DNA from: Escherichia coli
Lineage (GTDB): Bacteria; Pseudomonadota; Gammaproteobacteria; Enterobacterales; Enterobacteriaceae
Assembly: GCF_029227855.1 (NCBI RefSeq)
Contig: NZ_CP074356.1
DNA: 64,000 nucleotides
Reading direction: 5' to 3' (one strand)
The translations under genes and the position numbers were made by a program. Shown piece after piece: positions 17,404 to 18,571 of the stretch. The stretch's first letter is position 1. Each line of letters begins with the position of its first letter. The notes beneath the pieces are model-generated. The model was not told the DNA's origin and ran no database searches. It was given only the letters and a program-made list of their open reading frames with translations.

Positions 17404-17592
17404 TCAGATAATTTCCGGTGATGTTTCCAGCGCATCCGCAATCAGTTTTTCGCCGCGCGGCCTGGAGCGGGTCAGCGCATTTGCCAGCGTGGAAGACGCC
17501 AGCCCGGCCCTGCGGGAAACCTCAGCCAGCGATGTTCCCTTTTTTCTCAGGCCCGCGATAATATCGGCGGGGTGCCAGTCGGGTTGCATCAT
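17404..17592 (-). CDS. Ner/Nlp-family small DNA-binding protein
   Basis: 62-aa ORF MMQPDWHPADIIAGLRKKGTSLAEVSRRAGLASSTLANAL resembles the Mu Ner / E. coli Nlp family; ATGA overlap with upstream ORF. Confidence 0.75.
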   Translation of the reverse strand: MMQPDWHPADIIAGLRKKGTSLAEVSRRAGLASSTLANALTRSRPRGEKLIADALETSPEII

Positions 17593-18050
17593 GCTGGCCT
17601 CCCGTCGATAACCTGTATGCCGTCAGCAGTACATATCCAGCGTGGGGCGTTCAGATTGGCGGCAAAATACCAGACCAGTTCGCACAGCAGCCCGGTCAGC
17701 GTGGTTTCGGTTTCCGGCAGCAGCACGTGGCCGTTCAGTATCTGCGTCAGCGCCAGGCAGTAATCGCAGAGTGATCCTGCATCAGGCTCAAAACCGGGTG
17801 AAACATCGGGAAGATCATTCGTAATAAACCCGTCAATCAGATGTGGTGGGATCGGCTCGTTCAGCGTGGGCCGCAACAGTGCAAGACAGGTATTAAGCCT
17901 GCCACAGAGCGCCGTTTTCAGCGCCGGATCGCAGCACTCGATGAGCGTTGTGGCAACGCGATCGCAGTACTCCGCCAGATCGGTGAAATCGGTAGCGGCA
18001 CTAAAGGGAACAGCAAGTAAATTGCATTCAGAGGTGAGAGTAGTCGCCAT
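17589..18050 (-). CDS. Hypothetical Cys-rich protein (153 aa), co-transcribed with Ner-like gene
   Basis: ORF translationally coupled to the Ner-like gene; no family recognised. Confidence 0.5.
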   Translation of the reverse strand: MATTLTSECNLLAVPFSAATDFTDLAEYCDRVATTLIECCDPALKTALCGRLNTCLALLRPTLNEPIPPHLIDGFITNDLPDVSPGFEPDAGSLCDYCLALTQILNGHVLLPETETTLTGLLCELVWYFAANLNAPRWICTADGIQVIDGRPA

Positions 18051-18571
18051 AAGGCCGTCTACAGTGAGTGATAAATATTCCAGCCACTGGAGAGGCTAAT
18101 CTCACGGGTGGTGGAACCGGACGGGGTTAGCCTTACCAGCCTCACTGACACTGGCGCGTCTTTCGACGCCCCCGCCCGATCCCGCCATTGAGATGAGACC
18201 GTGCGCGACACACAAATATTGTATCGTCAGTGAGGATCTTCAGGAGGCTAATCCCGACGCCTGATTTTGCAGGCGCGGCGCAACAATACAATGTTCGGTA
18301 ATTTTCAGCAAGAGGTTTAGCGGAAGCAGACGCACAGGAAAATACAATCACGCGATAAATATTAAATACAATTATATTTATATAAAATATATATTGAGCA
18401 ATATGCAGACACTTTCCAGTAAATATCCTGTCAGTTAATTCGTCCCGTTGATATCAGTCAAAAAAATAAATGTAAAAAGAGCGTATTTCGTTTCATACAG
18501 TAACGTTATTTATCATTTTGTCCGGTGTCGCCAGCATCAGGCCAGATGAACCATAAAAAAGGATATCAGCG

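Follow-up and report, generated by a model that had tools for sequence, protein, structure and literature searches.

What do two small, overlapping genes do beside a large Rhs gene? In a 64,000-nucleotide (nt) stretch of Escherichia coli DNA (assembly GCF_029227855.1, contig NZ_CP074356.1), the whole of which is called the window below, a 153-codon open reading frame (ORF), here termed orf153, and a gene for a Ner-family winged helix-turn-helix (HTH) protein lie on the minus strand, divergent from the Rhs gene. The original prediction read this pair either as a regulator of Rhs expression or as a remnant of a Mu-like element. A third explanation is favored here, with a probability of roughly 75%: the two genes supply the protein output of an IsrK-C4 antisense-RNA switch, of the type termed seqA-CI in P4 and c4 in P1/P7, and belong to the backbone of small tRNA-integrated mobilizable islands in Enterobacterales. 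Comparisons rest on 79 loci with orf153 relatives from other Enterobacterales species, fetched as one genome per species, with further loci from exact look-ups. Annotation of the window was taken from identical E. coli DNA and comprises 41 features within 20 kb on either side.

The two genes are as follows.

17589-18050, minus strand: orf153, 153 amino acids (aa) from an ATG start, intact; an uncharacterized, predicted four-helix-bundle protein, ATGA-coupled to the Ner gene
17341-17592, minus strand: Ner-family winged-HTH gene; its open part, 17404-17592, encodes 62 aa and ends at a premature TGA (17404-17406)

Both reading frames were correctly described in the original prediction (17589-18050 and 17404-17592), as was their ATGA overlap, which is shared at 17592-17589. 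The distance to the divergent Rhs gene, put at about 520 bp, is 521 bp from the orf153 ATG to the Rhs start at 18572, and the intervening DNA is AT-rich as claimed, with a GC content of 30.5% at 18300-18499 compared to 55-60% on both flanks.

Homologues of orf153, about 200 in number and 50-99% identical, occur across Enterobacterales. An exhaustive profile search yields 232 representative clusters, and the six distant clusters that were looked up are all enterobacterial. The ratio of nonsynonymous to synonymous substitution rates (dN/dS) is about 0.2, which indicates purifying selection, and AlphaFold models the protein as a four-helix bundle with a C-terminal beta-hairpin (predicted local distance difference test score 87, predicted template modeling score 0.80). 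The ATGA overlap is retained in 39 of the 45 loci that have a Ner gene. Together, the homologues, dN/dS, structure model and retained overlap show that orf153 is a real gene and that the pair is more than a chance arrangement. A lack of homologues or of a coding signature had been named as grounds for dismissing the ORF; both homologues and purifying selection are found. The description of orf153 as cysteine-rich holds for its composition, with 10 cysteines present, but not for its conservation, since only C95 is invariant and C29 nearly so. A cysteine-rich metal site is ruled out by this limited conservation.

The HTH protein was assigned to the Ner/Nlp family, and this assignment is supported by several matches. 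It matches the NCBIfam SfsB model NF007670 (E 6e-26) with 90.3 bits, below the 150-bit equivalog cut-off, so that it is a Ner-family member but not SfsB itself. It also matches PHROG 769, "transcriptional repressor" (1.6e-22), and a 73-aa relative matches Mu Ner (PDB 1NEQ, 4e-23) and EnrR (7F9H, 1e-22). The domain PF13693 (HTH_35) is found on the relatives' Ner products. This small winged-HTH fold is common to Mu Ner, E. coli SfsB/Nlp, Edwardsiella EnrR and IncC Acr1, and members of the family are Cro-like repressors or nucleoid-associated regulators of mobile DNA (PMC9023278, PMC4542580). Unlike the other members, the window gene stands behind a C4 switch, is ATGA-coupled to orf153, and is truncated. 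The conserved Trp of its IWPSRY motif is replaced by the TGA at 17404-17406, and a second conserved Trp is changed to Arg. With the stop read through, the product has 84 aa and is 84.5% identical to an intact E. coli homologue. The 62 aa of the open part compare with 71-86 aa in relatives, and the conserved C-terminal WPSRY segment is lost; the 62-aa ORF is a truncated gene. A 96%-identical island in strain STEC307 carries an independent Ner frameshift beside an intact orf153.

The evidence that carries the favored explanation lies in the leader upstream of orf153, which contains the following elements.

18283-18311, minus strand: conserved sigma-70-like operon promoter, -35 TTGCTG at 18306-18311, 17-nt spacer, -10 TATTGT at 18283-18288, from a 23-locus alignment
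18214-18289, minus strand: IsrK/seqA-like a1/b1 leader, b1 at 18245-18251 and a1 at 18226-18235; the terminator hairpin of relatives is deleted
18104-18192, minus strand: C4/CI-type antisense RNA gene, a' loop at 18140-18149 and b' strand at 18127-18133
18057-18099, minus strand: downstream C4 targets, b2 at 18093-18099 and a2 at 18062-18068, adjoining the ribosome-binding site

The Rfam gathering scores used here are 45 for C4 (RF01695), 46.7 for c4-a1b1 (RF03163), 50 for isrK (RF01394) and 51.2 for EFASI (RF02957). The C4 gene of the window scores 62.2 bits over the full length of its model. Its three-helix structure is supported by RNAalifold on 27 orthologous sequences, in which 14 of 28 pairs show compensatory changes, and in at least 80 of 90 leaders 53-57 nt separate the end of the gene from the downstream orf153 ATG. 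Upstream of C4, isrK and c4-a1b1 score 56-75 and 50 bits at the orthologous positions in relatives, above both thresholds, and most relatives have an IsrK-type terminator hairpin between a1 and C4. The promoter consensus among loci, CTTGCYG, 17 nt and TATCTT, stands ahead of a1/b1. Similarity between the 23 aligned loci starts exactly at its -35, immediately upstream of which the variable cargo of each locus starts. A generic promoter scan did not recover this conserved promoter.

The complementarity of C4 to its targets is conserved while its sequence is not. The a' segment (the second hairpin loop) and the b' segment (the 3' single strand) are hypervariable, with 37 type combinations in 68 loci, and they covary in about 70 loci with all four targets: b1 and a1 upstream, and b2 (at about -49) and a2 (at about -19) downstream. 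When the C4 loops of each locus were also paired with the targets of other loci, the complementary runs at the four targets averaged 8.1, 6.9, 8.4 and 7.0 nt for cognate targets compared to 5.2, 4.4, 4.6 and 3.6 nt for non-cognate ones. In relatives a conserved GGAGG directly adjoins a2; the window has GTAGAC instead (18057-18062), which means that the Shine-Dalgarno sequence of orf153 is lost. The leader thus has the anatomy of a C4-type immunity region, with loops complementary to upstream and downstream targets on one transcript. A scan of the immunity region of phage P4 finds the same pair of C4 and isrK/a1b1 RNAs, in agreement with the published equivalence of IsrK with seqA and of C4 with the CI RNA (PMC3632133, PMC4825925). 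The RNA switch is a member of a known family.

Several annotated proteins overlie this RNA gene. RefSeq coding sequences named "ash family protein" (Pfam PF10554) lie exactly over C4, in the window at 18059-18211 on the minus strand, in the E. coli JJ1886 locus (L094) at 9205-9363, and in further matches. The window translation over C4 matches PF10554 weakly (E 0.067). In relatives the ash frame is open and shares the reading frame of orf153, which gives rise to 199-aa "ash family" annotations. The ash family may be largely a translated RNA gene, although orf45 of Gifsy-1 shows that such an ORF over C4 can be translated (PMC4825925). Apparent orf153 "fusion" proteins of 200-490 aa are likewise not domain fusions; they are read-through ORFs across C4 genes. 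At two other loci the leader itself differs: the C4 position upstream of an orf153 homologue is held by an sRNA-Xcc1 match (RF02221, 69.5 bits) in L026 at 9856-9940, and a similar non-C4 leader stands upstream of the homologue in L045. The two leaders suggest that other RNAs can take the place of C4 as gates of this ORF.

The promoter reads leftward through the a1/b1 hairpins, C4, b2/a2, orf153 and the ATGA-coupled Ner gene, toward an EFASI motif and a relaxase-like gene described below. By analogy with the phage systems, the switch might work as follows. C4 would be cut from the leader, by RNase P, and would then accumulate, as in P1/P7, P4 and Gifsy-1. Through its a' loop and b' strand it may bind b2 and a2 at the ribosome-binding site and block translation of orf153 and, via coupling, of Ner, with the upstream a1/b1 RNA acting as a possible competitor or decoy. 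Under this model, orf153 and Ner would be made as a pulse only when C4 is scarce, upon entry into a naive cell or during a burst of transcription, and resident C4 would repress incoming elements of the same a'/b' type. The tentative role of Ner is that of a Cro/Vis-like regulator of the island's transfer module, or of an excision factor for it, and orf153 is tentatively seen as a partner protein, which may harm the host when derepressed.

Among the closest known systems is the immI operon (c4-icd-ant) of P1/P7. There, as in the window, C4 lies in the leader of the mRNA that it controls, a'/b' are matched by a1/b1 and by a2/b2 at the ribosome site of the first ORF, and translation of this ORF is coupled to that of the gene after it; altered loops define distinct immunity types. 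These features of the c4 operon were reportedly described by Citron and Schuster in 1990 and by Biere et al. in 1992, and those of the P4 seqA-CI-seqC region reportedly by Sabbattini et al. in 1995. Unlike P1/P7, the genes downstream in the window are orf153 and a Ner-family HTH gene rather than icd and an antirepressor gene, and the host element is a small tRNA island rather than a phage. A second likeness is to isrK-orf45-anrP of Gifsy-1 in Salmonella, where a terminated IsrK short RNA and a read-through mRNA are made, the C4-like STnc1160 overlaps a short ORF whose translation is coupled to that of the following gene, and the output arrests growth (PMC4825925). The IsrK terminator of Gifsy-1 has its counterpart in relatives of the window. 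The window differs from Gifsy-1 in its payload, in the deletion of this terminator, and in its short ORF across C4, which stops at a TAG that arose through the Shine-Dalgarno mutation.

Several findings weigh against the favored explanation. In the window itself, both upstream RNA matches fall just below their gathering scores, with 43.8 bits for c4-a1b1 at 18237-18289 and 45.5 bits for isrK at 18214-18276, because the terminator hairpin is deleted. Among single-sequence duplex energies between C4 and its targets, only those of the upstream targets stand out (1% of shuffles), while those of the downstream targets, at which translation would be controlled, are unremarkable (11-13% of shuffles). 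Searches of orf153 against Pfam, NCBIfam, PHROGs and PADLOC gave no usable family or defense match, and a structure search gave no informative fold match. The relaxase and origin-of-transfer assignments made below rest on Pfam family, literature and synteny. Finally, in 44 of the 79 loci Ner, integrase and relaxase-like genes are all missing within 10 kb, and only the leader, C4 and an orf153 of 142-160 aa are kept, without a conserved neighboring gene. In these solitary units orf153 is under the same purifying selection (dN/dS 0.23). Because solitary units persist under such selection, the function of orf153 and its RNA gate is independent of island transfer, and orf153 must have a role that does not require it.

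These solitary units also bring in a rival explanation, in which C4 and orf153 make up an addiction or exclusion module that stands on its own, in the manner of a type I toxin-antitoxin pair, with orf153 as the harmful product and C4 as the antidote. Such a module would stabilize the adjacent cargo and resist deletion, and Ner would be optional to it. This explanation overlaps with the favored one and does not exclude it; we regard it as a real possibility, though one with the odds against it. It would account for the 44 minimal loci, most of which have no tRNA within 10 kb, and for the intactness and selection of solitary orf153. It would also account for deletion derivatives that end right after orf153, namely that of E. 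coli JJ1886 at thrW, beside type I restriction-modification (R-M) and AbiE genes, and that of L049 next to tRNA-Phe, and for the decay of Ner beside an intact orf153 in the window and STEC307. Precedents exist in icd of P1 and kil of P4, which lie directly below C4/CI and are host-toxic. In addition, IsrK-like RNAs were required in a transposon-directed insertion-site sequencing (TraDIS) screen of S. Typhi (PMC3632133). However, orf153 is a predicted soluble four-helix bundle, unlike known type I toxins, and it matches no toxin family and nothing in PADLOC. Of the two marks of a type I toxin-antitoxin system, an antisense RNA with matching targets is present here, but a small hydrophobic or membrane toxin is not.

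A broader version of this explanation, held more tentatively still, is that C4 and orf153 constitute an autonomous RNA-gated effector of a new protein family. It might act as an addiction, exclusion or abortive module, would persist at many core-genome sites in solitary form, would anchor nearby defense or type VI secretion system (T6SS) cargo, and would define dozens of non-cross-reacting immunity types among the mobilizable islands of Enterobacterales. If true, this would link P4-style RNA immunity to conjugatively mobilized islands of the MOB_M type, whose regulation and mobility are so far unexplained.

Solitary units occur in varied surroundings. Some lie inside core operons, for example between tar and cheW, and units at unrelated core-genome sites, including L089 (9112-10438) and L090, lack any recombinase; no convincing flanking repeats were found around the unit in L089. 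One genome carries at least five copies of the solitary promoter-a1b1-C4-orf153 unit (L012, L013, L017, L018 and L025), each of a different a'/b' type. Identical types were found in 0 of 30 within-genome pairs of co-resident copies compared to about 1 expected, so that this comparison has no power. Another orf153 homologue lies, with a 1069-aa hypothetical protein, at the variable end of L091 (CP088862.1), a 35 kb circular record deposited as a plasmid that carries e14-type genes (pinE, tfaE, ymfQ) and tail and baseplate genes. From this placement, the orf153 unit also occupies accessory-gene (moron) slots of prophages.

In the window, the gene pair belongs to an island, whose other parts are listed here.

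13034-13109, plus strand: tRNA-Asn (ARAGORN, Rfam tRNA); the left attachment repeat is formed by its final 15 nt, 13095-13109
13271-14532, plus strand: P4-type tyrosine integrase pseudogene, frameshifted
15896-16487, minus strand: "phage integrase N-terminal domain" gene, frameshifted; PF12834/PF12835 in intact relatives
16543-16670, minus strand: EFASI motif (100.8 bits), about 55 nt upstream of the relaxase-like gene
23648-23662, plus strand: right attachment repeat CAGTCAGAGGAGCCA, identical to the 3' end of tRNA-Asn

A 15-nt repeat is expected by chance about 6e-5 times in 64 kb, and these direct repeats delimit a 10.5 kb island at about 13110-23662, with the Rhs gene inside. Its order is tRNA-Asn, P4-type integrase, relaxase-like gene, EFASI, Ner, orf153, C4, promoter, Rhs, and TPR/Sel1 gene. 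When an intact 419-aa integrase relative, which matches NF007246, is aligned by tblastn, the integrase is found in two frames, 13271-13711 and 13714-14529, and RefSeq calls it "frameshifted" on identical DNA. A backbone of tRNA, P4-type integrase, PF12834/PF12835 gene, EFASI (with or without STAXI), HTH_35 gene and orf153 is found again, at tRNA-Phe or tRNA-Asn, in Dickeya, Klebsiella, Salmonella, Brenneria, Kluyvera, Citrobacter and other genera.

The gene annotated as a second integrase is probably a tyrosine-recombinase-type relaxase (MOB_M, MpsA-like), as judged from several lines of evidence. PF12835 is used as a signature of MpsA-type, tyrosine-recombinase-like relaxases (PMC10484663), and MOB_M relaxases are reported to be common in chromosomes, to be mis-annotated as integrases, and usually to lie beside a true integrase (bioRxiv 10.64898/2026.01.13.699239). 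Intact relatives do have a PF12835 gene near an integrase; the window copy is frameshifted. Homologues of this gene are found on plasmids of 4-15 kb and in the integrative and conjugative element (ICE) SGI4, where the gene is preceded by STAXI (110.6 bits) and EFASI (85.2 bits). EFASI stands at the same position in six relatives, and because for both mpsA and mobK the oriT (origin of transfer) is located directly ahead of the gene (PMC6414798, PMC8152469), EFASI is by analogy a plausible candidate origin of transfer. No STAXI was found in the window at E values up to 1. Elsewhere, EFASI and STAXI, which Rfam lists as small-RNA motifs, lie directly upstream of the PF12835 gene in small islands as well as in SGI4 (L097 at 4075-4245 and 4721-4869; L010 at 10895-11041). 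The two may be oriT or single-strand DNA elements of the MOB_M module rather than trans-acting small RNAs.

The islands can be compared with the MOB_M elements of MpsA, MobK and TcpM, such as SGI1, which also have a PF12835 "integrase" beside a true integrase and a structured cis element upstream. The orf153 islands have no sgaDC, tra or rep genes, and their likeness to MpsA is drawn from Pfam family, literature and synteny. The orf153 islands also resemble the "integrase-only" defense islands of E. coli in their defense and competition cargo (PMC10121019).

The identity of the island bears on the kind of mobile element at issue. The original prediction is right in so far as the pair is a remnant of the regulatory module of a mobile element, but this element is not Mu-like; it has a P4-type integrase, attachment at tRNA-Asn, and an IsrK-C4 region. 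The only point in favor of a Mu-like transposable prophage is that the HTH protein belongs to the same family as Mu Ner. No Mu genes (A/B, repressor c or others) are annotated within 20 kb on either side, and orf153 is absent from IMG/VR and, with the exception of one 1.5 kb fragment, from 50,697 phage records. In practice, the Mu explanation is refuted.

Nor is the island a P4-like satellite. The P4 immunity region (seqA-CI RNA-seqC) contains the same Rfam pair, and a P4-type integrase at a tRNA is also present in the window. Of the P4 core set, however, only this integrase pseudogene and the RNA immunity region are found; by annotation, alpha primase, epsilon, sid, delta, psu and alpA are absent, and EFASI and the relaxase-like gene are present instead. 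ORF151 of P4, which is similar to orf153 in size and operon position, was considered as a homologue and ruled out (hhalign probability 0.1). The scarcity of orf153 relatives in viral collections is a further difference from P4.

The transfer module suggests another explanation, in which the operon is a leading-region establishment or anti-defense cassette that is expressed transiently on conjugative entry and then shut off by C4. The operon does adjoin the STAXI/EFASI/relaxase-like module, toward which its transcription runs, these cis elements are also present in SGI4, and the C4 logic, by analogy with P1, could give a pulse on entry. Nevertheless, the ArdC-like leading-type gene of SGI4 lies on the other side of the relaxase-like gene, and solitary C4-orf153 units have no transfer module at all. 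We consider this explanation improbable.

The remaining question is that of the Rhs gene, which belongs to the cargo of the island.

18312-18571, no strand assigned: AT-rich spacer from module promoter to cargo, 90% identical to that of an E. coli island carrying different T6SS cargo
18572-23358, plus strand: cargo, comprising a PAAR-Rhs gene and a Sel1/TPR-like probable immunity gene (22756-23358)

An in-frame stop at 22172-22174 interrupts the PAAR-Rhs gene, whose frame then continues to 22753, and the gene is a pseudogene in the window; the allele of strain K_EC180 is intact, with 1330 aa. The stop falls just before the end of the conserved core, and the frame beyond it corresponds to the C-terminal toxin region.

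Beside other orf153 loci the cargo is mostly of another kind. Dickeya has type I R-M and DarTG genes, Klebsiella has DUF4747, AbiE and TacAT, and 81 cargo ORFs from 30 loci include Schlafen/AlbA_2, AAA_13, DUF4917, Dcm, AbiE, type I R-M and GNAT domains. Anti-phage defense genes make up most of the cargo of the 79 species-level loci, and Rhs similarity beside the module is found among them only in Atlantibacter. Rhs or T6SS cargo is confined to Escherichia and this one Atlantibacter locus. In E. coli, three diverged module variants (100%, 91% and 82% identity) all adjoin T6SS-type cargo, which is PAAR-Rhs in one, DUF2169 with PAAR-like and Rhs genes in another, and tssG/tssF/VgrG/PAAR in the third. 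Given that Rhs occurs only in Atlantibacter among the 79 loci and that the three E. coli variants adjoin T6SS-type cargo, the Rhs linkage is lineage-specific cargo and not a conserved partnership.

This result bears directly on the proposal that the pair regulates Rhs. In this view, the Ner-like protein would regulate the adjacent Rhs/T6SS cargo, for instance through displacement of H-NS from the AT-rich DNA between the divergent genes. EnrR, a Ner-family protein of a genomic island, antagonizes H-NS at AT-rich island DNA and activates type III secretion system and T6SS genes (PMC9023278), and the sequence relation between Ner and EnrR, the 30% GC spacer between operon and Rhs, and the T6SS-type cargo of the three E. 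coli variants and the Atlantibacter locus are all consistent with such a role. The AT-rich spacer, moreover, is common to two of the three E. coli variants despite their different cargo. Against this, most genera carry unrelated defense cargo, Ner is a pseudogene in the window and in STEC307 and is absent from half of the loci, and the Rhs gene itself has a stop codon. The synteny check suggested in the original prediction shows that the pair is not conserved beside rhs, its neighbors being mostly R-M, DarTG, AbiE and Schlafen/AlbA_2 genes. As a conserved relationship, regulation of Rhs is not supported; the T6SS-type cargo of the three E. coli variants and the EnrR precedent sustain a weak version of the proposal, which we regard as unlikely.

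With the antisense-RNA switch as the favored explanation, the window copy itself is a decayed fossil: the Shine-Dalgarno sequence carries a mutation, the Ner product is cut short, frameshifts disrupt the integrase and the relaxase-like gene, and Rhs is cargo. For the window strain this is an ordinary finding, a decayed island with Rhs cargo. The wider significance lies in the backbone. Small "integrase-only" islands hold much of the anti-phage defense and some of the T6SS effectors of E. coli and its relatives, and the regulation and movement of these islands have yet to be explained (PMC10121019; bioRxiv 10.64898/2026.01.13.699239). One widespread backbone joins a P4-type integrase, an ICE-type STAXI/EFASI and relaxase-like module, and a P4/P1-type RNA switch that would gate orf153 and Ner. 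The literature searched contains no account of the orf153 family, its C4 control, the Ner coupling, the union with EFASI and a relaxase-like gene, or solitary C4-orf153 units. Database annotation is also corrected, in that "ash family protein" coding sequences lie over the C4 RNA gene and an "integrase domain protein" is probably a relaxase.

Two minor features of the islands may be added. HigA and HigB are absent from the window, but in other E. coli variants Ner and the relaxase-like gene are separated by a HigA-family antitoxin gene (L092 at 8547-8807; L093 at 8534-8836), with no HigB annotated. In the window, two direct repeats of 131 nt, 73% identical and without an Rfam match, lie at 14734-14864 and 14962-15092, in the AT-rich stretch of 1.3 kb that separates the integrase from the relaxase-like pseudogene.

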